44,370 nt of DNA from IMG/VR virus record IMGVR_UViG_3300045988_005581; one strand, given 5' to 3'. Numbering within the stretch: position 1 is the first letter of the stretch; every line of letters begins with the position of its first letter. Source of the DNA: a virus. Lineage: Duplodnaviria; Heunggongvirae; Uroviricota; Caudoviricetes. Shown here in pieces: positions 1 to 39,197 of this stretch. Both the position numbers and the translations under genes were made by a program. The notes beneath the pieces were generated by a model. That model was given only the letters and a program-made list of their open reading frames with translations. It searched no databases and had not been told where the DNA came from.

Positions 1-119
1 ATTTTTTTTATCTATTTTCTGTGATGACTAGTTGACTATTATCCTCGACCCTATTATATTTACTTCATCGACAACGAGAACGGAGTAGAGAGAAATGGGC
101 AACGTATCGACGATAGAAA
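1..119. repeat. Terminal duplication (copy 1), identical to 44252..44370
   Basis: Bases 1..119 match 44252..44370 exactly by eye; the junction lies in the T-run of the terminator at 44231..44260. Implies a unit length of 44,251 bp; the repeat touches both window edges so its true extent is unknown. Confidence 0.9.
32..60 (+). promoter_or_regulatory. sigma70-like promoter TTGACT-N17-TATATT
   Basis: TTGACT at 32-37, 17-bp spacer, TATATT at 55-60; about 35 nt upstream of the first ORF (ATG 95). Confidence 0.5.
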
Positions 120-295
120 TAACCGAAGAACTCGAAGTTAAATGTATCGCATCAGCTATAATAGGGAATGGTTCGGTGGAAAAACTACAGATGAGGGCTG
201 CTGCGGGCTACATACGCAGGGCTAATAGCGCGCAGACTGATGTTTTACGTAAACGTTACCTCGTGAAAGCGTTAGAAATACTGGAGAATAACTAA
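95..295 (+). CDS. hypothetical small protein (66 aa), first gene of a coupled small-ORF chain
   Basis: ATG at 95 with purine-rich RBS (GGAGTAGAGAGAA); stop overlaps next start (TAATG). No recognisable motif. Confidence 0.6.
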   Translation: MGNVSTIEITEELEVKCIASAIIGNGSVEKLQMRAAAGYIRRANSAQTDVLRKRYLVKALEILENN

Positions 296-2918: not shown

Positions 2919-4179
2919 TATCACGGCAACGGAGCCGCAAGGCGCGTTTCTCGGTATGCATTGCAAGTTTCCGGCATTCGTAGCTGGCTTCGGTACGGGT
3001 AAATCCGAAGTTATGTGCAACTCTGCACTACTCGACAGCATGGAAGGTGGTAGCGATTCTATCATCGCCATGTATGAGCCGACTTATGACCTGGTGCGCC
3101 TCATCCTTGCACCGCGTATGGAAGAAAAGCTCACCGACTGGGGTATCCGGTACAAATACAACAAGTCTGACAACATAATCTATACGTCTTCCGGACAATT
3201 TGGGGATTTTGTTCTGCGTACACTTGATAATCCAGCACGAATCGTTGGCTACGAATCGTTTCGTGCGAAAATCGACGAGTTGGACACCCTTAACATGGAG
3301 CACGCCGAGCACGCGTGGAACAAAGTCATCGCCCGTAACCGCCAGTTGCCGCGGACATATAAACCTATTACACCGAAACCTGCTAATACCGTTTCCGTGT
3401 TCACTACCCCGGAAGGATTCCGTTTCGTACATGACCGCTGGGTAGTCAAAAAGAATCCAGGCTACGAGATGATTCAGGCGTCCACCCTGTCTAACCCGTT
3501 CCTGCCAGAAGATTATGTGCAGTCGTTACGCGACACATACCCAGGTCAGTTGATTGACGCCTACATCAACGGCGAGTTCGTCAACCTGACGGCGGGGACT
3601 GTCTATTACGCCTATGACCGCAGGAAAAACAGCAGCCGCGAAACAATAAAACCAGGCGAGACTCTGTATATCGGGCAGGACTTTAACGTAGGCCACATGG
3701 CTAGTACAGTTTACGTGCAACGTGGCAAAGTCTGGCATGCAGTCGCCGAGTTGGTGGATATGTTCGATACGCCCGATGTGGTGAGAGCCGTAACAGAGCG
3801 CTGGAAAAGTAAGGGCCACTATATCGTTATGTACCCCGACGCAAGCGGTAAAAACCGTAAAAGTAACAACGCCAGCACATCTGATATCGCCCAGTTACAG
3901 CAGGCCGGCTTCGAAGTGCGCGCTAAATCGACAAACCCACCGGTTAAAGACCGCGTAGCGGCGATGAATAAGGCGCTTGAATCTGGTATGGTCATGATTA
4001 ATGAACAGGCTTGCCCTGTTACCGCACGATGCCTGGAGCAACAGGCTTACGACAAGAACGGCGAACCGGATAAATCAGGCGGTGTGGACCACCAGAATGA
4101 TGGAACCACATACCCTATCGCGTATGAAATGCCGATTCGCAAACCAGTTATTAACGTCCCGGTGACTTTCGCACTTTAA
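2908..4179 (+). CDS. terminase large subunit
   Basis: Walker A-like GFGTGKS near the N-terminus, 423 aa, followed by portal gene. Tool start is GTG 2908; alternative ATG at 2956. Confidence 0.85.
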   Translation: MNVNITATEPQGAFLGMHCKFPAFVAGFGTGKSEVMCNSALLDSMEGGSDSIIAMYEPTYDLVRLILAPRMEEKLTDWGIRYKYNKSDNIIYTSSGQFGDFVLRTLDNPARIVGYESFRAKIDELDTLNMEHAEHAWNKVIARNRQLPRTYKPITPKPANTVSVFTTPEGFRFVHDRWVVKKNPGYEMIQASTLSNPFLPEDYVQSLRDTYPGQLIDAYINGEFVNLTAGTVYYAYDRRKNSSRETIKPGETLYIGQDFNVGHMASTVYVQRGKVWHAVAELVDMFDTPDVVRAVTERWKSKGHYIVMYPDASGKNRKSNNASTSDIAQLQQAGFEVRAKSTNPPVKDRVAAMNKALESGMVMINEQACPVTARCLEQQAYDKNGEPDKSGGVDHQNDGTTYPIAYEMPIRKPVINVPVTFAL

Positions 4180-4191
4180 GAGGATTATTCA

Positions 4192-5673
4192 ATGTTAACT
4201 ATGAACGGTCAGAATCAGGGTGTTAAGACAAAACACCGGGAATGGCTGCATCACTTCGATAAATGGCAGAAGGTACGCCACGCTCTTGAAGGCGACCTTA
4301 TCCGCTATCTGCGCAACGTCGGGAAGAACGAGCCTGACCAGACCTACGCAGCACAGCGACAGGAAGAATACGAGAACGGCGCTATCTGCTACAATTTCAC
4401 CAAACGCACGCTGGCGGGGATGACGGGGTCAGTGATGCGCAAAGACCCTGAGCAGATTATCCCGCCTGAACTTGAGTACCTGTTGCACAACGCTGACGGT
4501 TCAGGTGTCGGGCTGTGGCAGCACGCGCAGGATACGCTGATGGAGATTAACTCGATAGGCCGTGGCGGGTTGCTGGTGGACGCCCCGGAAACAGCCGCAG
4601 CAACGGCGGCAGAGCAGAACGCGGGATTATTAAACCCGGTAATCGCATTCTATACCGCGGAGAACATTATCAACTGGAGACTCACCCGCATCGGTTCAGT
4701 GAACCGCGTGACGATGGTTGTATTGCGTGAGGCATGGGAATACTCGGAACCAGGCGCTGAGTTTGAAACAAAATTCGGCGAGCAATACCGCGTCCTTGAC
4801 CTGATTGACGGTCGCTACCGCCAGCGCATCTACCGCTTCGATGCCGAAGGTGGCGCACAGGATGAAGTAATCGAAATCTTCCCGGAACTCGGCGAACAGT
4901 TGCGCGGTAAAATCCCGTTCACGTTCATTGGCGCAAGCAACAACGACGCCACTATAGACGATGCGCCTTTACTGCCGTTAGCTGAGCTAAATATAGGACA
5001 CTTCAGAAATTCGGCCGATGTGGAAGAGGCCAGCTTTATAGTAGGTCAACCGACACTGTTCATTGCCCCCGGCGAGAACATGAGCATGGAGCAGTGGAAA
5101 GAAGCCAACCCACACGGCATACGCATGGGGTCGCGTTCAGGCCACAACATCGGCTCCGGCGGAAATGCGTTTCTGGTTCAGGCGGCGGAAACTAACCTCG
5201 CCAAACAGAACATGCTGGATAAAGAGAATCAGGCCATCCAGATTGGCGCGCAGCTTATCACCCCGACGCAGCAAATCACCGCGGAATCGGCCCGCCTGCA
5301 ACGCGGCGCCGACACGTCAGTCATGGCAACAATAGCACGTAATGTAAGCATGGCGTATACCGATGCGTTGCGCTGGGTTGCGGGTATGCTTGGGCTTAGT
5401 GAAGATACTGAGATTGAGTTCAAGCTGAATATGGAATTCTTCCTGCAACCGATGACCGCTCAGGACCGCGCTCAGTGGATGGCGGATATTAACGCTGGCC
5501 TGCTACCCGCCACCGCTTACTATGCTGCGTTGCGCAAGGCAGGTGTGACTGACTGGACAGATGAGGACATTCAGAACGCTATTGAAGACGCACCTCTGCC
5601 GTTGGGTTCTGTTGCTCAGGTAGCGGGAGAGATTCCGCAGTCGGCGCAGCAACAGGACACCACTCAGCAGTAA
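4192..5673 (+). CDS. portal protein
   Basis: 493 aa directly downstream of TerL, strong RBS AAGAGGA, acidic Gln-rich C-terminus; assignment by size and synteny. Confidence 0.8.
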   Translation: MLTMNGQNQGVKTKHREWLHHFDKWQKVRHALEGDLIRYLRNVGKNEPDQTYAAQRQEEYENGAICYNFTKRTLAGMTGSVMRKDPEQIIPPELEYLLHNADGSGVGLWQHAQDTLMEINSIGRGGLLVDAPETAAATAAEQNAGLLNPVIAFYTAENIINWRLTRIGSVNRVTMVVLREAWEYSEPGAEFETKFGEQYRVLDLIDGRYRQRIYRFDAEGGAQDEVIEIFPELGEQLRGKIPFTFIGASNNDATIDDAPLLPLAELNIGHFRNSADVEEASFIVGQPTLFIAPGENMSMEQWKEANPHGIRMGSRSGHNIGSGGNAFLVQAAETNLAKQNMLDKENQAIQIGAQLITPTQQITAESARLQRGADTSVMATIARNVSMAYTDALRWVAGMLGLSEDTEIEFKLNMEFFLQPMTAQDRAQWMADINAGLLPATAYYAALRKAGVTDWTDEDIQNAIEDAPLPLGSVAQVAGEIPQSAQQQDTTQQ

Positions 5674-5709: not shown

Positions 5710-6786
5710 ATGCTATTAACTTTAGCGCCACAGGGTTTATCTATGAGCTTACTTACATCCCTAATCAGCCATCAGATATGGCTGCAACGCACCGCATCCG
5801 GTGAAGTGAAAGACCTCACGCCGTTCATTCAGGAGATAAGGGATGAAATCAAACGGCAGGTGCTGTTATTCGGTGACGACGGTCGCAGCACTGCGCGACT
5901 GAATAAACTGTTACGCGACCTGGAAGAAGCACTAACCGGTATTACGGGTGACTGGCAAACAAAGCTAACAGACGACCTTAAGGAACTGGCGGCGTACGAG
6001 GCTGAGTGGAACGTAAAGACACTGACCGCCAACGTAGACGCGGAATTTGTTACGCCTACCGCTGAGCAGGTATGGGCCGCTGCCGAGTTTCAACCATTAT
6101 CATTGAGCGACAAGCCCGTTGATTTCACCAAGCTGATGTCTGGATGGGGCGAAACGGAAGTAGCACGTCTTGTAACTGGAGTTAAGATGGGCTTTGTGCA
6201 AGGTCAAACCACACGGCAGATTGTTAAGAATGTTGTTGGCGCTGGTGGACTAGCCGACATCTCAGAACGTAACGCGACTACGGTAATCCGCACCGCGCTG
6301 TCCCACGTATCCAACGAGGCCCGTAACGAGACGTACCGCCAGAACGACGACATCATCGAGAAATATGAGTGGGTGTCAACTTTGGACAGCCGTACCAGCA
6401 CGATTTGCAGGGCCAGAGACGGAATGACGTGGGAAATCGGTAAAGGTCCGATGCCACCAGCCCATCCTAATTGCCGAAGTACCACTGCACCGGTAATCAG
6501 TTCAGAGTTCGACTTCCTTGATAAAGGCGCAAAACGTGCGGCTAAGGGTGCGTACGGCGGTACTCAGGTAAGCGCAGACACCACCTATTACGAGTTCCTG
6601 AAACAACAACCAGCATGGTTTCAGGACCAGGCGATCGGTCCTGTTCGTGGTAAGATTTTCCGTAACAGCGGTATATCGCCGGAAGAGTTTCGCGTAAAAT
6701 CTGTAGATGGTTTCGGGAATCCGCTTACGCTTAAGCAGATGGCGGAACTCGATAAACGTGTTGCTGATTATCTGAAAGGGGATTAA
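5710..6786 (+). CDS. head morphogenesis protein (Mu F / SPP1 gp7-like)
   Basis: Contains TLDSRTSTICRARDGMTWE, matching the conserved D-x-R-T...C...DG signature of Mu F-like minor head proteins as I recall it; sits after the portal gene. Start could be 5710 or 5740. Confidence 0.8.
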   Translation: MLLTLAPQGLSMSLLTSLISHQIWLQRTASGEVKDLTPFIQEIRDEIKRQVLLFGDDGRSTARLNKLLRDLEEALTGITGDWQTKLTDDLKELAAYEAEWNVKTLTANVDAEFVTPTAEQVWAAAEFQPLSLSDKPVDFTKLMSGWGETEVARLVTGVKMGFVQGQTTRQIVKNVVGAGGLADISERNATTVIRTALSHVSNEARNETYRQNDDIIEKYEWVSTLDSRTSTICRARDGMTWEIGKGPMPPAHPNCRSTTAPVISSEFDFLDKGAKRAAKGAYGGTQVSADTTYYEFLKQQPAWFQDQAIGPVRGKIFRNSGISPEEFRVKSVDGFGNPLTLKQMAELDKRVADYLKGD

Positions 6787-7247
6787 TGATGGGCTTTTTC
6801 AAAGTAACTGATGTGCCGTCACGTCGCGTAGTCCAGTACGCTCGGGTGTCTGGCTCTGGTGAGAACGTGGTGTTTATTGAGGATGAAAGTGTACTGGGTA
6901 CACCGGTAGACGACATGCCGTTTGCGGATAAAACCGGCATTGCGCTGCCTGCGGCCGGTATGCTCTATGAGATTCCGTATCTGGCGGACGCAGGCGATGT
7001 GTATTTCTCTGTGCAACCAAAAGACGCTGAACTGGCCGACGGCAGCGCGACTATCACTGTCGAAGTTAAAGCAGGTGAAGCGCCGTATGCACTGACCTGG
7101 TACAAAGACGGTAAGGAAGTTGTCAACGCCCCGGAAGAGGCACTTTCCTTGACGGTTAACGCAGTGGGTGAATACTTCGTTAAAGTTACCGATGCTGATG
7201 GTGTAGAGGCTGTCAGTAAAGCTGCGAAGGTCACTAAGCCCGAATGA
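6786..7247 (+). CDS. Ig-like domain protein (possible head decoration)
   Basis: C-terminal segment YALTWYKDGKEVV...GEYFVKVTDADG resembles Ig-like/BIG-type domains; shares the motif with ORF 10559..10909. Confidence 0.6.
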   Translation: MMGFFKVTDVPSRRVVQYARVSGSGENVVFIEDESVLGTPVDDMPFADKTGIALPAAGMLYEIPYLADAGDVYFSVQPKDAELADGSATITVEVKAGEAPYALTWYKDGKEVVNAPEEALSLTVNAVGEYFVKVTDADGVEAVSKAAKVTKPE

Positions 7248-7251
7248 TAAA

Positions 7252-7278
7252 AGGCCCCATTAAGGGGCCTTAGTTTTC
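7252..7278. terminator. bidirectional intrinsic terminator
   Basis: AGGCCCC (7252-7258) / GGGGCCT (7264-7270) with 5-nt loop; T-runs on both strands. Lies between convergent genes. Confidence 0.65.
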
Positions 7279-7480
7279 AACGGAATCTTGTGTTTAAATC
7301 CTGCTCGTGGACGACCCTCAGAACAGTGTCATAATCCCCGTATCTTCCAGGTTCAAATACATCTAATGCCTTGTAAGCAGACATTGCGTCAGGGAAAACC
7401 TGCAGAACCTTTTTAACACGGCACAAGTCACCGTCGAACTCTTCATCGAACTCTTGAACTACTTCGCAAATTGCATACAT
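7277..7480 (-). CDS. hypothetical acidic protein (67 aa), solitary antisense gene
   Basis: ATG at 7480 (minus) preceded by GGGGGTG RBS and a sigma70-like promoter; terminated by the bidirectional terminator. Confidence 0.5.
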   Translation of the reverse strand: MYAICEVVQEFDEEFDGDLCRVKKVLQVFPDAMSAYKALDVFEPGRYGDYDTVLRVVHEQDLNTRFR

Positions 7481-7507
7481 TTTTCACCCCCTGCTTAAGT
7501 TAACTGA

Positions 7508-7536
7508 ATAGTACCCTATTATATTGGGGTGTGCAA
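7508..7536 (-). promoter_or_regulatory. sigma70-like promoter TTGCAC-N17-TACTAT (minus strand) with embedded dyad
   Basis: On the minus strand: TTGCAC (7531-7536), 17 bp, TACTAT (7508-7513); dyad AATAG-N4-CTATT at 7507-7520. About 25 bp upstream of the ATG at 7480. Confidence 0.5.
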
Positions 7537-7602
7537 ACTATTTATTTACTTATTCCAGTTATTCCGCTCAATTGTAAATGTTGGAATAAACTATTCGAAT
7601 AG

Positions 7603-7631
7603 TTGACTTTTCACTAAAAATATGATAAGCT
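7603..7631 (+). promoter_or_regulatory. promoter P_A: TTGACT-N17-TGnTAAGCT (extended -10)
   Basis: TTGACT 7603-7608, 17-bp spacer, TG 7623-7624, TAAGCT 7626-7631. Identical core promoter at 39890..39918. Preceded by the perfect palindrome ACTATTCGAATAGT (7590-7603). Confidence 0.6.
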
Positions 7632-7637
7632 CCACCT

Positions 7638-7838
7638 GAGCTTGTGAAGTATGAACAAGCGACCGCGGCGCGGGCAGGTAACGGAGCGGGACGTAAGTCC
7701 TGAGTGTAGTTACGCTGACGCGTTCGGAAGGGCCATACTCTATTGCTTGTGTAAAAAGTAACAGGTTTACTTAGATTACGCCGTTTCTATGTTTAAATGA
7801 TAAGGACTAGCGCCCTGCTTTAAGGCAGGGCTTTACTT
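7638..7838 (+). ncRNA. candidate short terminated transcript / structured leader (element A)
   Basis: Region between P_A and the terminator at 7812..7838; shares a 43-nt identical 5' arm (7626-7668) and a 23-nt identical 3' arm (7723-7745) with element B at 39913-40032. Not shown to be transcribed. Confidence 0.35.
7812..7838 (+). terminator. intrinsic terminator 18 nt upstream of the spanin start
   Basis: GCCCTGC (7812-7818) / GCAGGGC (7825-7831), loop TTTAAG, then TTTACTT. Confidence 0.6.
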
Positions 7839-7855
7839 ATCGAGAAAGGGGAAAC

Positions 7856-8242
7856 ATGAATCTTAAAGCAACCGTCGTAGCAGGAGCATGTTTCATCATC
7901 CTGGCTTACACACACGGCATTTATCAGTACCGCAGCGGCTGGCACGAAGGCCGCGCTAATCTCGTTTCGCAGCAACAGCAGAAAGCACAGGCCGAGTTAG
8001 CGAAGAAAACACAACGGCAGCAGCAAGATGAATCAAAGGCCGCCGCCGCTGACAACGAAGGCAAGACGAAATCAGAGGTGATCACCCGTGAAGTCGTTAA
8101 GTACATTAAAACTCCTGGTCGCAGCGTGTGCACTTTCGACCCTGAGCGCGTGCAGCTCAAGTCCCGCGCCGTCGCAAACGCCAATTCCATCCCCGGATAC
8201 GACGATGATGCAGCCGCCGTGCAAGCTGGCACCGCCGAGTAG
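7856..8242 (+). CDS. i-spanin (Rz-like inner-membrane spanin)
   Basis: N-terminal TM segment (VVAGACFIILAY), charged Gln/Ala/Lys-rich coiled-coil-like middle region, and an out-of-frame lipoprotein ORF overlapping its 3' half. Confidence 0.7.
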   Translation: MNLKATVVAGACFIILAYTHGIYQYRSGWHEGRANLVSQQQQKAQAELAKKTQRQQQDESKAAAADNEGKTKSEVITREVVKYIKTPGRSVCTFDPERVQLKSRAVANANSIPGYDDDAAAVQAGTAE

Positions 8243-22239: not shown

Positions 22240-22601
22240 ATATTAACGACTACACGGGAATACCTTACGACTTTCGCAAACGTAATTGCTGGCATCACGT
22301 GCGCATTGTCCGCGCGGATGCCGGGTTAGAAACCCCAGCGTTCGACGTTGCAAGCCCAACGGCGATTAACGAAGCGTTCGACGAAGGACATCGCAACACG
22401 AAGGGACTTACAAAAATTGATAAGCCTGAAAACTTCTGTGCGGTGCTTATGGGGTATCGCCGCGGCGGTCGTATCGTGTGGCACGCAGGAGTTTACTTCG
22501 ACGGGATGGTGAGCCATTGCGAGCTTGCGTCCCGTCAGGTACGGCTTGACAGGCTGGCGGATCTCAGAGACACGTACACGGAGATTGAATTTTGGCGATA
22601 A
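22236..22601 (+). CDS. tail assembly protein (possible NlpC/P60-like)
   Basis: 121 aa with a Cys...His...His pattern (NCWHHV ... VWHAGVYF ... SHCE) resembling lambda K-type tail assembly proteins; tentative. Confidence 0.45.
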   Translation: MNINDYTGIPYDFRKRNCWHHVRIVRADAGLETPAFDVASPTAINEAFDEGHRNTKGLTKIDKPENFCAVLMGYRRGGRIVWHAGVYFDGMVSHCELASRQVRLDRLADLRDTYTEIEFWR

Positions 22602-25159
22602 TCCTGCACTACACGCGAAACGCTGATGGCGCTTTCAACCGTACAAAACACGTCGGGATGCCGATGGAGTTTGTCGTTAACCGTATCCCGGGCGGCGTTC
22701 CGGTACGCGTCTATCTTGGCGAGATTGGTGATGATACTGATGTTACAGACGACTTCGACGCGCTCAAAGACGAGGACGCCGTGTACCACATTATTGAGGG
22801 CGCTGGCGGCGGCATTGGCGACGCCATCGGGAGTGTATTCAGTTTCATCCTTAAGCCAATCGCCAAATTGTTCGGGCTAAACACAGCGGCTAACGCTAAT
22901 TATTCCGCTACCAACAATCAGGCTACGTCGCCTAACAACAGTCTCACCGACCGCTCAAACAAGCCACGACCTTATGAGCGTTCCTATGATATCTGCGGGA
23001 CAGTGCAGACTATACCCAATGACCTGATGCAGACGTATAAGGTGTTTAACGCCACGGGGGCGCTTATTGAATATGCGTACTATGACGCCGGTCGAGGGTA
23101 TCTGCATATTGAGGAAGACGGTGTAACTGAGGCAGATACCCGAATCAGCGAGATAACTGGCTCGTCGGTGACGGTGTATTCTCCTTACACTTCGCCGAAT
23201 AACACCAGCACACCACAATTGCATATCGGCGACCCTATAGACCAGAAATTGTACGTTACATTTAAAAACGCCGATGTCGATGGCGCTGTTCTTCCCGCCC
23301 CTAATGATATCGCTATAGACGTGCAGGACTACACTGTCCAGCGGCAGGGAACAACCGGCGTTGTAGTAGGCGATGACGCTGGTTTCGATGAGTTTTTGGC
23401 GGTCGGGGACCTGGCATACTTCGATAACGTATATGCAGATACAACCCCAGGGTCTTTGGGTAATGAGGTTAACCTGGACGGGAGGTACACGGTTCTTTCT
23501 GTTAGTGAAACGACCCTTATTGTGGACGTCAGTACAAATCAATCAATATGGAACCAGCTAGGAACATCTGTATGGTTTATAGGTGAAGAGGGCAACCATC
23601 TTATAGGCCCGGCGGATACTTACGCGGCTTCCCTCTCTGAATGGGCGTACATCACCCGCGGAACCGTCGACCGTGTTGTAGCCAATGTGGCTGCCAGCAA
23701 CGGCATGTACAAATACAACGGCGACTATAACCGCGCTTCAGTGACAGTCGAACTGCAATACCAGATGGTAGATGAATTGAAACAGCCTGTAGGTGACATA
23801 TTTACCGTACGAGGAACCGTAACAGGCCGGAACACGGATTACACAGGGATTACTCTTTACGGAAGTTTACCAACTGCTTCCAGATTCCGCGCCCGTATGC
23901 GTCGTGTTTCGGACACCGATAAAGATTTTGAAGGTACTGTTAGCGACGAGGTTACTTTCACTAATCTGTATGGGCAGTCGCTGGACACAACCCCCCACTA
24001 CGGCAACCGTACTACCGTACACTGCGCCCGTAAACAAACCCCACGTGCAGCCGAGGTGTCCGAACCGGAACTGCGCATGATTGCAACCGAGATGTGCTAC
24101 AAATACTTAGGTAACGGCGTATTCGATACGGTAATGACACCGAACACTCAGGCCGTGCAGTCGCTAATCAGGCTGGCGCGTGACCCTGTGGTGGGTAATC
24201 TGGAACTGACAACGGCAAATATGGACAAGTTACTTGCCGTGCAGGAAGAAATTGAGTCGTATTTTGACAGTGAATTAGCCGGGCAGTTCTGCTACACATT
24301 CGACGACTACGACACAACCATGCAAGACATCGTTCAGACCATCGCGGAAGCCGTGTTTTGTACGGCATACCGTAAAGGTGCTGATATTATGCTGCGATTC
24401 GACCGTCCTGTTGCGGGGCCTGAGATGGTTTTCACCCACCGCAGCAAAACGACCGGTACGGAGAAATGGACGCGCACGTTCAACGATTCGACAACCTACG
24501 ATAGCCTGTCGTTCTCGTACATTGACCCGGATACAAACGTACAGGAGACGATTTATATCCCGGAAGAACTCGGCGCGAACACCGAGGAGTACGAATCGAA
24601 GGGTGTACGTAACTATCAGCAAGCGTACTGGCTGGCGTGGCGTCGCTACCAGCGCAACACGTTAAGTAAAGTTGTCGTAGAGTTCGAAGCTACCGAAGAA
24701 GGCGCTCTCGCTACTCCCGGCGGCGTAATCAGTGTGGTTAAAGGCTCGCGTATCGCGCCGCAGGATGGTTATGTTGTTGCCGTCAATGGCCTTACGCTGA
24801 CGCTGTCTCAGCCTGTTACGTTTACTCCTGGTGATGACCATTCCATCATTCTTAAGAAGCGCGACGGCTCTGTGCAGAGTATTTCTGTTATCAAAGGAAG
24901 CCACGACCGCGAAGTGATTATGCTCTCCGCGCCGGAGGAGGCAATCTACACGGGGAATAGCGCACTAAAAACTGAGTTTTCATTCGGCAACGAAGCAAGG
25001 CATAATGCTCAGAAGATAGTTGTTTCTTCAATCGACCCCGGCGACGACCGCACGGTCAAGATTACGGGCTACAACTATGACGACGGATTCTATAAATACG
25101 ACGGCGTCGCGCCATACGGCAGCAGCTTCTCCGACGGATTCAGCAATGGTTTTAATTAA
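22592..25159 (+). CDS. tail tip / central tail fibre protein (J-like)
   Basis: 855 aa, largest tail-tip gene, follows the K-like gene. Tool start is TTG; first in-frame ATGs at 22658 and 22664, so the start is uncertain. Confidence 0.7.
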   Translation: MAIILHYTRNADGAFNRTKHVGMPMEFVVNRIPGGVPVRVYLGEIGDDTDVTDDFDALKDEDAVYHIIEGAGGGIGDAIGSVFSFILKPIAKLFGLNTAANANYSATNNQATSPNNSLTDRSNKPRPYERSYDICGTVQTIPNDLMQTYKVFNATGALIEYAYYDAGRGYLHIEEDGVTEADTRISEITGSSVTVYSPYTSPNNTSTPQLHIGDPIDQKLYVTFKNADVDGAVLPAPNDIAIDVQDYTVQRQGTTGVVVGDDAGFDEFLAVGDLAYFDNVYADTTPGSLGNEVNLDGRYTVLSVSETTLIVDVSTNQSIWNQLGTSVWFIGEEGNHLIGPADTYAASLSEWAYITRGTVDRVVANVAASNGMYKYNGDYNRASVTVELQYQMVDELKQPVGDIFTVRGTVTGRNTDYTGITLYGSLPTASRFRARMRRVSDTDKDFEGTVSDEVTFTNLYGQSLDTTPHYGNRTTVHCARKQTPRAAEVSEPELRMIATEMCYKYLGNGVFDTVMTPNTQAVQSLIRLARDPVVGNLELTTANMDKLLAVQEEIESYFDSELAGQFCYTFDDYDTTMQDIVQTIAEAVFCTAYRKGADIMLRFDRPVAGPEMVFTHRSKTTGTEKWTRTFNDSTTYDSLSFSYIDPDTNVQETIYIPEELGANTEEYESKGVRNYQQAYWLAWRRYQRNTLSKVVVEFEATEEGALATPGGVISVVKGSRIAPQDGYVVAVNGLTLTLSQPVTFTPGDDHSIILKKRDGSVQSISVIKGSHDREVIMLSAPEEAIYTGNSALKTEFSFGNEARHNAQKIVVSSIDPGDDRTVKITGYNYDDGFYKYDGVAPYGSSFSDGFSNGFN

Positions 25160-25171
25160 AGAGGACTCTAT

Positions 25172-27157
25172 ATGTCAAGCGGATGCGGTGACGTTTTAAG
25201 CCTGGCGGATTTACAGACCGCCAAGAAACATCAGATTTTCGAGGCCGAGGTTATCACTGGCAAATCCTGCGGTGTAGCTACGGGTGCAGACATTGATTAC
25301 GCAACAAATCAGGTTACCGGGCAGACGCAGAAGACGCTTCCTGCCGTGTTGCGCGACGCGGGTTTTTCTCCTGTGTCATGGGATTTCTCCACAGGCGGCA
25401 CGTTAACCGTTAACGACCGGGACAAGGTGGTGTATGACCCTGTTAGCAAAACATGGTACTCGTACGCAGGTACGTTACCAGTTGTTGTCCCTGCATCGTT
25501 TAATCCAGTCGGTAACGCTAACTGGAAGCCGCAGACAGACCCAAATTTGCGTAATGATTTGGCGTCAAGTACCGCCGGTTTAGGGGCTTCACTGGTGTCT
25601 TTTTCCAACGGTAACACCGTTGAAACATTATCTGACGCGGAAGGTGCCAAGAACATAGGCAGTGGCGAAAGGAGTTTGCTTGCACGTAACAATGATATTA
25701 AGCATTCTGGCGACTTTTCTACCCTTCAAGCCGCGGTAGATGCGTCGTTAACTAAAAACGACTTAATTGTTTCTCCGGGTGAGTATACAGAAGCAATCAC
25801 TCTGGGTAGTAAGCAGATAAAAGGTGTAGGTGGTGCTGCAATATTAAAACCATCGGCAAACTATGCAAATACTGTACAGGTTAATTTATCCACCCCGCAC
25901 TGGCAGTTTCGACACAGCGGTGGTTTTGCCGTAGATGGTACAGGTACAACTGGGGCCGTAGGTATTAGTTTTGACCCGTCAGACCAATATTCCGGACGTC
26001 ATAATTTTAGTGATTTATACATCCACAACATCAACAAGGCCATTCAGAAGCCTTCCGGGAACATCGGTAATACATGGAGAAATATTGGGGTATCTACGTG
26101 TGATTGGGGGTATTACGCGATTAGTGGCTCAGAGATGCATTGCGGGGCCGATACCCTCTACAATATCCACTTCGACGGCATCTCCACCTATGCCGTCTAC
26201 CTAAACGGCACTGTCGATAACGGCGGGATAGGCGGATGGTGGCTTAAAGACTCCATTATTGAGGCTTCCGGAGGCGGCGGGATATATTTAAAAAGCAAAT
26301 CAGGTGACTGCCCTACATCTCCATGCGGGGTATCCAATGTATGGACGGACGCGATTGCAACATCATCGGCTGTTCAGGTAGACGGCGTGGCGCAAAAACC
26401 GCGAGTTCTCAAGTTGGTAGACACCGCGATATTCTTTGCTGAGTATTCTTATCTCAACAACATCGAGCTATCCAACTCCAACTTAGTAACTTATGGTTGC
26501 CGTTTTGACAACGCCGATGGTAATCAGGATATTGTAGTGGATGCACAAAGCACCATCGTAGCCCACGACGTGTATTTAAACGGCAGCTCTGGAAAGGACG
26601 TTATTGTAGAGTCTGTCGCGTCGCAATCCGCAACGATAGCCACTACAAACTTGTCTCTACGAGGAAATTTAACAAGGGGACGAGTGTTTAATACGCCGAC
26701 GGGGAATAAGTTAAAAGCTATCACATTTGACTCAGGTAGCTGTAATTTTTCTGGTAGCGGTACCGTTAACGGTTCGACTGTATCTGACGGACTTCACGCC
26801 GCTACATGTACCGAATTTTCATTCCCTGGGTCCGGTTTATATGAAATGGTAGCGTCAAGAACGACACTTACATCCGGTAGATGGTACGTGTGGGGCGTCA
26901 ACTCTCGCCTCCAATCAGGAACAGCAGATGTGAGTATAACGTCAGGTATTACTATGGGTAGCGTTTATACTAAGTCTGGTGAGTGGATTAGCACATTTGG
27001 GGTGGGTAAAGCTTCCGCTAACGGTACTGTAGGTCTGTACGTCTCTACTGGGGGAGGTTCAGGTGCTGTTATCAGATTTAGTGACTTCTTCATCGCTGAG
27101 TTTACGACGCAGGCTCAGGCTTTAGCTTTCGCTAACTCCCGAATGTCGTTGGCTTAA
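25172..27157 (+). CDS. tail fibre / tailspike with beta-helix-like receptor-binding domain
   Basis: 661 aa; RBS AAGAGGA; N-terminal anchor-like region followed by Gly/Asn/Ser/Thr/Val-rich repeats typical of right-handed beta-helix folds; last gene of the tail operon, followed by a terminator. Confidence 0.75.
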   Translation: MSSGCGDVLSLADLQTAKKHQIFEAEVITGKSCGVATGADIDYATNQVTGQTQKTLPAVLRDAGFSPVSWDFSTGGTLTVNDRDKVVYDPVSKTWYSYAGTLPVVVPASFNPVGNANWKPQTDPNLRNDLASSTAGLGASLVSFSNGNTVETLSDAEGAKNIGSGERSLLARNNDIKHSGDFSTLQAAVDASLTKNDLIVSPGEYTEAITLGSKQIKGVGGAAILKPSANYANTVQVNLSTPHWQFRHSGGFAVDGTGTTGAVGISFDPSDQYSGRHNFSDLYIHNINKAIQKPSGNIGNTWRNIGVSTCDWGYYAISGSEMHCGADTLYNIHFDGISTYAVYLNGTVDNGGIGGWWLKDSIIEASGGGGIYLKSKSGDCPTSPCGVSNVWTDAIATSSAVQVDGVAQKPRVLKLVDTAIFFAEYSYLNNIELSNSNLVTYGCRFDNADGNQDIVVDAQSTIVAHDVYLNGSSGKDVIVESVASQSATIATTNLSLRGNLTRGRVFNTPTGNKLKAITFDSGSCNFSGSGTVNGSTVSDGLHAATCTEFSFPGSGLYEMVASRTTLTSGRWYVWGVNSRLQSGTADVSITSGITMGSVYTKSGEWISTFGVGKASANGTVGLYVSTGGGSGAVIRFSDFFIAEFTTQAQALAFANSRMSLA

Positions 27158-27162
27158 AACTA

Positions 27163-27185
27163 AGGCCCCAAACGGGGCCTTTTCT
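27163..27185. terminator. intrinsic terminator closing the tail operon (bidirectional-looking)
   Basis: AGGCCCC (27163-27169) / GGGGCCT (27174-27180), loop AAAC, then TTTTCT. Confidence 0.7.
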
Positions 27186-27323
27186 CTACTCTTCTGATAA
27201 CTTCTCCAGTACAAACGCCAGTTGCGCATTAGCGGCGTCTCTTTGCTGACGTAGCCGCAGAACCTCTTCTTCGAGTTCCTTGATACGTTTTTGCAATGCC
27301 GGAATTGGGGCTATGATGTTCAT
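27186..27323 (-). CDS. possible 45-aa coiled-coil peptide
   Basis: ATG at 27323 overlaps the stop of the upstream Toprim gene (ATGA); RBS-like GAGGAAA; predicted helical (KRIKELEEEVLRLRQQ). Speculative. Confidence 0.3.
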   Translation of the reverse strand: MNIIAPIPALQKRIKELEEEVLRLRQQRDAANAQLAFVLEKLSEE

Positions 27324-36635: not shown

Positions 36636-36948
36636 ATAGCAACTTATCGAGTTCTTCCAAATTCTTAATAGTGTGTTGCACGTTCAGGTACTGAATCCAG
36701 GCGAGAAACCACGCACTTACAGGAAAACTTATAACAATAGTTATCGATATAATTAATTTGAAAAGGCACTTTATAATCTCTGCCAGCGTCATGTCTAAAA
36801 TGTCTTTAAACTCCGCAAAAATCCCCGCTGCATACACACAAAAAGTCCACCAGTTGTTGCTTACAGCGGAAACACATGTCAGGTATGACGGGCGGTATCC
36901 TGCCTTCACTGCTTTAAACGGGTTATCTATAAAATCGTAAATATTCAT
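36634..36948 (-). CDS. hypothetical membrane protein (104 aa)
   Basis: Two or three hydrophobic segments; ATGA-coupled to the end of the primase-helicase gene. Confidence 0.5.
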   Translation of the reverse strand: MNIYDFIDNPFKAVKAGYRPSYLTCVSAVSNNWWTFCVYAAGIFAEFKDILDMTLAEIIKCLFKLIISITIVISFPVSAWFLAWIQYLNVQHTIKNLEELDKLL

Positions 36949-39197
36949 TCCAAATCCTCCTCGGTCACTGTCAGCATTTCATTCGGCTCGTATATTGTCT
37001 TCGGAATCTTGTTATCTGTTATCATGGTGTTCAGTCTGTAACGGCCTGGGATTATCTGATTGTTTTCGTCAGTACCCGGAACAAGATACCCAGCCTCAAC
37101 CATTTTCTTAATCTTCCCGCGTTCTATGGCTTCTTTGGAGTTAAACGCCTTTGCGTTGGGGTCAGACTGCGCGAGCTTATTCGCTGCGGATACCGTGATG
37201 CCCTCGTTGCCGTTGTAGGTCCCCTCCGCCAGTTCAAACGCCGCGAGTATCGTGGCCTCGGAACTGTTGACGGCGTTCTCTATGGTTTTACGTACATTTT
37301 GTTTACCTTCGTTAGTTAACCCTTCTTCCCTCTCTTTCTCCTCGTCGGTCTTGAATGGCTCGAAGCCCCACGGCATCAATACAAGCGCCTTGTGCGGCTC
37401 AGGCAGGTCGAGGTTTACTATTGTGCCGTATTCCTCTGTGCTACCGAGGAACTCAACCGCGCGGTACTCTTTCGGCGGCGGTGCTTCACGGAACTGTACA
37501 GACTCCAGTACCATGCCAACCGTCTTCTGTTGCGGACCGTGCTTAAATTTAGAGTGGTATACGTTTATCTGACGGTCGGTAGCGCGTTCGATTGTCAGTT
37601 CCACGTCGACACCCGCATACAATGCTCCACTGCCGCGGGCTTTCTTTCCGCCCTTCGGAGTATGGTGAACGACACCGACAGCGGCTTTAGTTGCATCGCG
37701 CACTTCTTTCAGGATGGCGATAACTTTACCCATACCGATTGCCGTTGATGAACTGTTCTCGTCGAACTTATCAATCGTCAGGGCCAGCGTCTGGTTAAGG
37801 GTGTCGAAGGCAACCATGCCAATAGGTTCATCCCCCGCGGTTTCGCGCATCCTGCGGATTAGAGCTGGAATTTTTTTATCACCATGCGTAGCGAGTATTT
37901 CGCCCATATCGATGACATGTACATAATCTTTACCTTCCTCGCCATATTTAGCCGCGAGTGCATCAATACGTGTTCGTGTAGCTGCACCACCCTCGCCGTC
38001 AATATAGAAATGGTGGCAACGTTGGGTGTCAGCCCCCGCAAACCGGTACCCGGCGGCGCTCAGGTACATCATCCCCAGCGTATAGAATGATTTGTACGTG
38101 CCGGATTCCCCGACAATATCCCAGATACAATCCGACGGCATGTACCCCTCAACGACGAAATCAGCCTTTACCGGTTCTGGTAACTCGTCCTCTTCTTCAA
38201 GGTCTTCCAGCGTGCAAGTTACAGGCTCCTCGTTCTCTGTGCGGTGCAGTTCTTCAATCTCTTCATCCGGTAAATCAGGCAGAGCCGCACGAATGCTGTT
38301 AATACTGATAGGTTGCTTGTCTACGTTAAGCTCGTCTGGCAGGCCGCACATACGCAGGGCCAAATGCTGTCGGCGGTTAAGCTCGGTGCAAGCGCCGTTG
38401 TTTGTATGCTGGCACACAAAGCGCACTTCTTTACCATCAAGCATGATGCTTGTGGAGCCTTTGCCTGTATGCAGATGTTCGTTAGGGCATGGGACTTCGT
38501 ACCCGCGCCCGGAAGATAAAGCGTCAAGGCCAAGCTCGGCTTCGCAGAAATGCGCTATATCAGCATTAAGCCCATACTCATCGGCGGCAAGTGTCTTAAC
38601 TTCACGTTTACTCAACCCCATCTCTTCGGCTTTCTTGATGTACCGCTCGGCACGGATAACACGCCCTTCTGTAACCGTTATCTTTGACTCTCTATGTGGC
38701 AGATAGATAAGGCGGTTGCCGTCTTCCGTGCAGTGGTCACGCAAGGCTTCATCTATTTCTAACTCTGCACAAATAGCCCGTTGGACCATCCACGCGTCGT
38801 TAGAGTTAAACGGCGTGCGAGCCGGAACCAGAACGCGGAAGGCGTAATCACCGTTTTTACACACATGCTGATGCGATGCCGTTGTATGCAGAATATTGAA
38901 GAACGGTGCGTTCTTGAATTTGCGGGTAAGGTCGCGGTACTGAGTACGGTTGAGATGGTCAAAATCGAACTTAACCACACTGTCTTCCAGGATAGCGTTT
39001 TTACGGCGACCCCCAACAGGCGCAATAGCTTTCTGCTTAATCTTGGCAGCGTCGTACTCTTCCTTAGACCACGACGGATCCACGGATAAACGCTTCGATG
39101 TATCGCAGACATACTCCACAAACTGCTCGAGCGGCATCTCACGCGCTACAGGGTTTTTATCGAATGTGTTGCGCAGCGTTGCAAAAACAATATTCAT
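36945..39197 (-). CDS. primase-polymerase / replicative helicase fusion protein
   Basis: 750 aa; N-terminal region with AEP-like VVKFDFDH and Cys/His cluster; C-terminal RecA-like domain with Walker A GESGTYKS and Walker B-like VAFDTLNQ. Confidence 0.8.
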   Translation of the reverse strand: MNIVFATLRNTFDKNPVAREMPLEQFVEYVCDTSKRLSVDPSWSKEEYDAAKIKQKAIAPVGGRRKNAILEDSVVKFDFDHLNRTQYRDLTRKFKNAPFFNILHTTASHQHVCKNGDYAFRVLVPARTPFNSNDAWMVQRAICAELEIDEALRDHCTEDGNRLIYLPHRESKITVTEGRVIRAERYIKKAEEMGLSKREVKTLAADEYGLNADIAHFCEAELGLDALSSGRGYEVPCPNEHLHTGKGSTSIMLDGKEVRFVCQHTNNGACTELNRRQHLALRMCGLPDELNVDKQPISINSIRAALPDLPDEEIEELHRTENEEPVTCTLEDLEEEDELPEPVKADFVVEGYMPSDCIWDIVGESGTYKSFYTLGMMYLSAAGYRFAGADTQRCHHFYIDGEGGAATRTRIDALAAKYGEEGKDYVHVIDMGEILATHGDKKIPALIRRMRETAGDEPIGMVAFDTLNQTLALTIDKFDENSSSTAIGMGKVIAILKEVRDATKAAVGVVHHTPKGGKKARGSGALYAGVDVELTIERATDRQINVYHSKFKHGPQQKTVGMVLESVQFREAPPPKEYRAVEFLGSTEEYGTIVNLDLPEPHKALVLMPWGFEPFKTDEEKEREEGLTNEGKQNVRKTIENAVNSSEATILAAFELAEGTYNGNEGITVSAANKLAQSDPNAKAFNSKEAIERGKIKKMVEAGYLVPGTDENNQIIPGRYRLNTMITDNKIPKTIYEPNEMLTVTEEDLE

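Follow-up and report, generated by a model that had tools for sequence, protein, structure and literature searches.

What does the last gene of the late region encode in this viral window (the whole 44,370-nucleotide stretch analyzed here), and which surface glycan does its product recognize? The ORF in question lies on the plus strand and, in the ORF list of the window, starts with ATG and encodes 661 amino acids before its stop codon. It is evident that this ORF is a genuine gene. Its product has a full-length match (E = 0) in PHROG 27367 ("tail fiber protein"). Tailspike or tail fibre genes annotated in 13 phage genomes share 96–99% DNA identity with it (98.8% nucleotide identity for the 'tailspike protein' of phiEc3), and the exact 661-aa protein is already public as DAO31768.1 ("MAG TPA: tailspike protein [Caudoviricetes sp.]"). 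The PHROG match, the 13 annotated homologs and the identical public protein together argue that the ORF has not arisen by chance. The gene start is separated by 12 bases from the stop codon (25157–25159) of an 855-aa J-like tail gene, and a Shine-Dalgarno-like AGAGGA located in this gap is six bases away from the ATG. The protein is the already annotated tailspike of Kagunavirus (Guernseyvirinae), and there is nothing new in its identity.

The nearest genomes are those of the Kagunavirus siphophages phiEc3, 22664BS2 and Golestan. In these phages, as well as in fEg-Eco06, phiEc4 and SCS44, the same locus encodes a 661-aa protein of 96–99% full-length identity, from which the window protein differs by few substitutions, mainly its private changes E393D and H524C. 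The plus-strand genes of the window are arranged in the order terminase, portal, head, tail, tape measure, distal and minor tail proteins, J-like protein and tailspike, and this order is the same as in phiEc3, Ivi and Shashou. Beyond the tailspike gene comes a convergent replication block on the minus strand, with a 45-aa ORF and then genes for a Toprim-like protein and an SNF2 helicase. These convergent genes, along with a hairpin after the tailspike stop codon, show that the tailspike gene closes the late operon. With its conserved N-terminal anchor, and as the final late-operon gene immediately following the J-like gene, it conforms to a Kagunavirus-type Guernseyvirinae tailspike. Among the ten larger ORFs of the structural region that were screened, no second fibre gene was found. 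The hairpin follows the tailspike stop codon immediately, with a perfect 8-bp GC-rich stem (27162–27181), and the convergent 45-aa ORF ends at 27186. A consensus terminator scan did not list a hairpin at 27162–27186, and terminators are annotated in the same place in Shashou. As read from its sequence, the hairpin probably terminates transcription in both directions, from the late plus-strand block and from the early minus-strand block. The J-like ORF (22592–25159) begins at TTG in the mechanical call that makes it 855 aa long, and related genomes annotate 829–831 aa, which implies that translation in fact begins at an ATG near position 22664. The coordinates of the features at the tailspike locus are listed in the table.

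Table. Features of the tailspike gene, its predicted product and its borders in the window, with the basis of each assignment.
Feature	Residues	Coordinates	Strand	Basis or remark
Shine-Dalgarno-like AGAGGA		25160..25165	+	Sequence reading, between the upstream stop codon and the ATG at 25172
Tailspike gene	1-661	25172..27157	+	ORF; PHROG 27367; phiEc3 nucleotide identity; DAO31768.1
N-terminal virion-anchor module	1-130	25172..25561	+	Homology to Ivi and Shashou
Lineage-specific linker	131-156	25562..25639	+	Private DNA, nt 390-468 of the gene
Receptor-binding module, LM33_P1 gp17 type	157-661	25640..27154	+	Homology to LM33_P1 gp17
Low-confidence segment with one helix	1-40			Model, pLDDT below 50
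Small beta-domain	43-120			Model
Short helices	124-191			Model
Predicted right-handed parallel beta-helix, about 12 rungs	~195-540	25754..26791	+	Model, stack of short strands with a 24-30-residue repeat
Codon Glu364, candidate catalytic carboxylate	364	26261..26263	+	Conservation; end of a rung strand
Codon 393 (GAC, Asp), second candidate catalytic carboxylate	393	26348..26350	+	Glu in relatives
Predicted C-terminal beta-sandwich, conserved end helix at 647-656	546-661	26807..27154	+	Model, pLDDT 89-97
GC-rich hairpin AAGGCCCC-AAAC-GGGGCCTT, T-rich runs on both strands		27162..27186	.	Read by eye; probable bidirectional terminator

The tailspike is a mosaic of two modules, a separate N-terminal particle-binding domain and an exchangeable receptor-binding domain. 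The preliminary description had assigned an anchor-like role to roughly the first 130 residues, and this estimate proved exact. The tailspike of Kagunavirus phage Ivi shares about 92% amino acid identity with the window protein up to residue 131 and none beyond, its distal part being unrelated, and with the K1 endosialidase tailspike of Shashou the identity ends near residue 159. LM33_P1 gp17 (YP_009324518.1, from a Kayfunavirus) stays at background identity until residue ~155–160 and then shares 80–100% to the end. At the DNA level, the break points are located at nt 389 and nt 469 of the gene (shared segments nt 1–389 and nt 469–1979), and the linker of about 80 nt between them has no DNA match to Ivi/Shashou or LM33_P1. 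The anchor contains a small beta-domain (aa ~66–120), and PF18668 (Tail_spike_N) matches at aa 77–112 with a sub-threshold score (23.9 bits versus a cutoff of 25). Across Kagunavirus and Jerseyvirus tailspikes, the N-terminus shows 55–92% identity. Judged by such homology, the anchor of aa 1–130 is specific to Guernseyvirinae. The stretch of aa ~62–150 is also found in tailspikes of Kuttervirus-like phages and of Klebsiella and Aeromonas phages, with 40–66% identity, which fits the conserved junction that has been proposed to aid recombination (PMC10408124).

Elsewhere, in proteins P0062–P0120, the Kagunavirus anchor (71–94% identical) is fused to a wide variety of distal domains, among them a GDSL/SGNH esterase (PF13472), a glycerophosphodiester phosphodiesterase (PF03009), a Peptidase_S74 fibre, and beta-helices of PF12708, PF13229 and PF27114. 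From these sequences, the Kagunavirus tailspike locus appears to amount to a broad cassette system.

The receptor-binding module shares 86.3% nucleotide identity with LM33_P1 gp17 over 1511 nt. At the protein level the identity is 83% over aa 95–661 (BLASTP) and about 90% from residue 154 onward, so that the likeness extends end to end and includes the C-terminal domain. Given this end-to-end identity, the same beta-helix and C-terminal domain are predicted for LM33_P1 gp17, and presumably the same receptor. The two proteins differ at the N-terminus, where LM33_P1 gp17 carries a T7-type fibre domain (PF03906) for a podovirus tail, whereas the window protein carries the Guernseyvirinae anchor. 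The kinship to LM33_P1 gp17 is already published, since ORF30 was reported to be 88% identical to the LM33_P1 fibre in the Golestan paper (PMC7203180). A more distant homolog is the 1021-aa TFP of the Kuravirus ES17, which shows 64–67% identity across the receptor-binding module. It differs from the window protein in an unrelated N-terminal part of roughly 510 aa, and binding to mammalian glycans has been shown for ES17 alone.

We then considered how widely the module is distributed. An exhaustive search with aa 160–661 among 1.84 billion proteins identified 273 cluster representatives (E ≤ 1e-3), and in most of these the alignment spans everything from the neck to the C-terminus. Helix and C-terminal domain therefore move as a unit. 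The adaptors ahead of the module include PF18668, the P22 head-binding domain (PF09008), the T7 fibre domain (PF03906) and the 1021-aa ES17 fibre. The module has thus been exchanged among sipho-, podo- and P22-like phages. This swapping, together with the lack of a second fibre gene among the ten ORFs screened, bears out the earlier suggestion that the protein is the likely host-range determinant.

Several copies of the module were found in other contexts. In a P22-like prophage (Logan SRR14303836 contig, 6001–7935), a 70%-identical module lies behind a P22 head-binding domain in the interval between ant and integrase. Two of 5426 complete E. coli genomes carry module copies, both of them distant (65–66% nucleotide identity), so such prophage copies are rare. 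A 70%-identical copy of aa 122–526 is located at 4001–5239 of MZ417522.1 ('UNVERIFIED: Mycolicibacterium phage J1'), within a 916-aa hypothetical protein. The 25-kb record, which names a Microviridae phage of Mycolicibacterium as its source, seems to be an enterobacterial phage assembly that was mislabelled or contaminated. Another copy, at 36788–38285 of OR594184.1 (Escherichia phage vB_EcoM_SHAK9454), is labelled 'similar to terminase large subunit' and is evidently mis-annotated.

We further sought to address the fold of the receptor-binding module. An AlphaFold2 monomer model was built from an alignment of 39 sequences (mean pLDDT 83.6, pTM 0.70), and it confirmed the predicted central right-handed parallel beta-helix. 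Long strands start at residues 247, 277, 301, 328, 357, 385, 412, 437 and 461, which corresponds to one repeat per 24–30 residues. In a Foldseek search, the model was most similar to CBA120 TSP4 (E 3e-12), followed by the spikes of Klebsiella and Acinetobacter phages, Sf6, Det7 and HK620. The last domain matched the carbohydrate-binding modules CBM22, CBM4-2 and CBM16 (TM 0.5–0.6 on the target), and the best match among viral models was the ES17 TFP (E 7e-63). The preliminary description had proposed a tail fibre with a beta-helix on the basis of composition and periodicity, and had named structure prediction and comparison with tailspikes as the way to check it. The composition agrees with this proposal (G, N, S, T and V make up 47% of aa 131–661 versus 32% in 12 other long window proteins), as do the strand repeat in the model and the ranking of phage spikes at the top of the Foldseek matches. 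The beta-helix therefore stands in the model, but the term fibre does not, the protein being a tailspike. The spike is presumably a homotrimer, and the low confidence of its first 40 residues is as expected of a segment that folds on assembly.

The similarity to known spikes lies in structure much more than in sequence. Identity to all solved structures is 9–16%, and a PDB sequence search with the single protein returned chance matches only (E ≥ 0.34). The Pfam beta-helix and pectate-lyase models gave no match to the query at E ≤ 1, nor to the module alone at E ≤ 0.01. Among 72 aligned, distant relatives, PF12708 was found in 16 and PF13229 in 13. A family profile searched against the PDB matched the Sf6 tailspike, 7chu, a beta-1,3-glucanase, the phiAB6 spike and others (E 6e-10 to 1e-6). 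The query has no PF12708 or PF13229 match of its own and its relatives and profile do match, so its membership in the pectate-lyase fold is only transitive. Sf6 endorhamnosidase (2vbk) was matched by the profile at E 4e-9. By hhalign, aa 166–336 align with Sf6 residues 150–339 at 95.5% probability, covering the neck and the first rungs. Sf6 differs from the window protein in its P22-type head-binding N-terminus and in its C-terminal domain. The O-antigen glycosidases CBA120 TSP2 and TSP4 (6w4q, 5w6p and 5w6h) share 12–16% identity with it and have no match at the sequence level. Unlike the window spike, they have other specificities and belong to a branched multi-spike assembly.

Conservation among 119 aligned family members is highest at G296-N297-I298-G299-N300, R276, K293, M322-H323, D327, E364, W391, E393, W605 and F644. 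In the C-terminal domain, W605, F644, A650 and N655 are conserved in 88–97% of the family. The pattern points to a patch on rungs 3–7 (R276, K293, N297, N300, H323, D327, E364, W391 and E393) as the likely binding and active site. E364 and E393 follow equivalent strands of successive rungs in the model (357–364 and 385–392) and are our candidates for the catalytic residues. Position 364 is occupied by E in 107 and by Q in 11 of the 119 members. At position 393, all 118 other family representatives have Glu, as does every close relative where the surrounding motif was located, versus Asp in the window protein. We take E366/D399 to be the catalytic residues of Sf6, reportedly identified by Muller et al. 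in 2008. This pair would fall next to E364/E393, a placement that is an extrapolation because the Sf6 alignment reaches only residue 336 and stops short of the catalytic rungs.

The Asp at position 393 is a natural change that is private to the window sequence, along with H524C, among 18 close relatives. The protein of the nearest relative (P0280, on two Logan contigs) differs from that of the window by E393D and H524C only. These two replacements account for three nucleotide changes, and one or two further changes are synonymous. H524C results from a CAT to TGT change at codon 524 (26741–26743), and position 524 is variable across the family. The D393 sequence is present on eight public contigs, which makes an assembly error unlikely. 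In view of the conservation of Glu393, E393D may weaken catalysis.

The receptor of the module is suggested by the hosts on which its carriers were isolated. It is known that Kagunavirus phages rely on surface glycans and have an enzymatic tailspike at the same locus (PMC11990801). The tailspike of 22664BS2, a phage isolated on an O25b-positive strain (PMC8614997, Table 1), is 98.9% identical to the window protein. O25b-positive strains were also the isolation hosts of three Kayfunaviruses with the receptor-binding module, 22664BS1, 101118UKE1 and 101136BS1 (PMC8614997, Table 1). LM33, the host of LM33_P1, is ST131-O25b:H4 (PMC5434335), and ES17 targets ST131 (PMC7885116). All cultured module carriers for which host data were found thus have O25b or ST131 isolation hosts. 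This correlation with isolation hosts suggests that the O25b O-antigen is the likely receptor, also for the present phage, which is known from a metagenome assembly alone. Papers citing the description of LM33_P1 gave no mechanistic detail on gp17, and the tailspike modularity paper of Pas et al. 2023 contains no O25 or LM33 entry. The O25B repeat unit consists of two Glc, two Rha (one of them O-acetylated) and GlcNAc, and has no uronic acid (PMC9516715). Beta-elimination would therefore be unavailable, and if O25b is the substrate, its cleavage must be hydrolytic. The conserved acidic and polar patch suggests that the tailspike cleaves its receptor polysaccharide.

Among the other readings, the one that survives best is that of a beta-helix adhesin which binds glycans without cutting them, either throughout the family or only in the E393D variant, possibly with affinity for heparan sulfate. 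The ES17 TFP was found to bind heparan sulfate only, and depolymerase action was not detected by its authors (PMC7885116). We regard a purely binding spike as rather improbable. A version confined to the present phage, in which the natural variant E393D (with H524C) makes the spike mainly a glycan binder and the virus a gut siphophage tuned to adherence rather than to fast digestion of the O-antigen, seems to us quite unlikely. If E393D does slow or alter cleavage, the spike might share the affinity for mucosal heparan sulfate that has been claimed for its ES17 homolog.

It is also conceivable that the module degrades a capsule, as a K-antigen depolymerase directed at a group 2 capsule of ST131 strains, and is not an O-antigen tailspike. 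Such a role would be in line with the founding Kagunavirus phages, which hit the K1 capsule with the same locus and anchor (PMC11990801), with the many capsule depolymerases of Klebsiella and Acinetobacter phages among the structural neighbors, and with the name of putative capsular depolymerase that the ES17 authors gave to the domain (PMC7885116). The reported common feature of the isolation hosts (several DSM strains, LM33 and ST131), however, is the O25b antigen. Capsule types vary among ST131 strains, and LM33_P1 is reportedly described as O25b-restricted in the title and abstract of the 2016 paper by Dufour; both points count against a capsular receptor, which we consider unlikely, slightly more so than a binding-only spike. 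A polysaccharide lyase or epimerase acting by beta-elimination, as the 'pectate lyase' and 'K5 lyase' names of relatives would imply, is highly unlikely, because the likely substrate O25B offers no uronic acid (PMC9516715), these names derive from a fold-level Pfam family that covers hydrolases too, and the hydrolase tailspikes of Sf6, HK620 and CBA120 match about equally well. A specific kinship to K5 lyase was rejected as generic fold similarity. An endosialidase and a self-cleaving Peptidase_S74 chaperone were also rejected, neither domain being present in the query by Pfam.

The reading that we favor, and hold to be fairly probable as a whole, is that of a single Kagunavirus tailspike in which an anchor is joined to an O25b-binding and probably hydrolysing beta-helix unit. 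The first ~130 residues would fix the spike, which is presumably homotrimeric, at the tail tip beside the J-like protein. The remaining ~500 residues make up one horizontally exchanged unit, in which a C-terminal beta-sandwich follows a short helical neck and a beta-helix of ~12 rungs. Its most likely ligand is the O25b O-antigen of the E. coli ST131 lineage, which it probably hydrolyses as an endoglycosidase. By such cleavage the virion would advance through the LPS until it reaches the outer membrane, and DNA ejection would there be triggered by the central tail fibre.

The tailspike is an ordinary and known feature of modest practical interest, and the sole unexpected detail is the private change at the otherwise invariant Glu393. 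Host-range engineering could make use of the module boundaries (aa ~130 and ~157) and of the candidate active-site residues, as could the design of a reagent that binds or cleaves O25b specifically. Several phages put forward as therapeutics against multidrug-resistant ST131-O25b E. coli owe their specificity to the same module, which moves among siphoviruses, T7-like and phiEco32-like podoviruses, and P22-like prophages.
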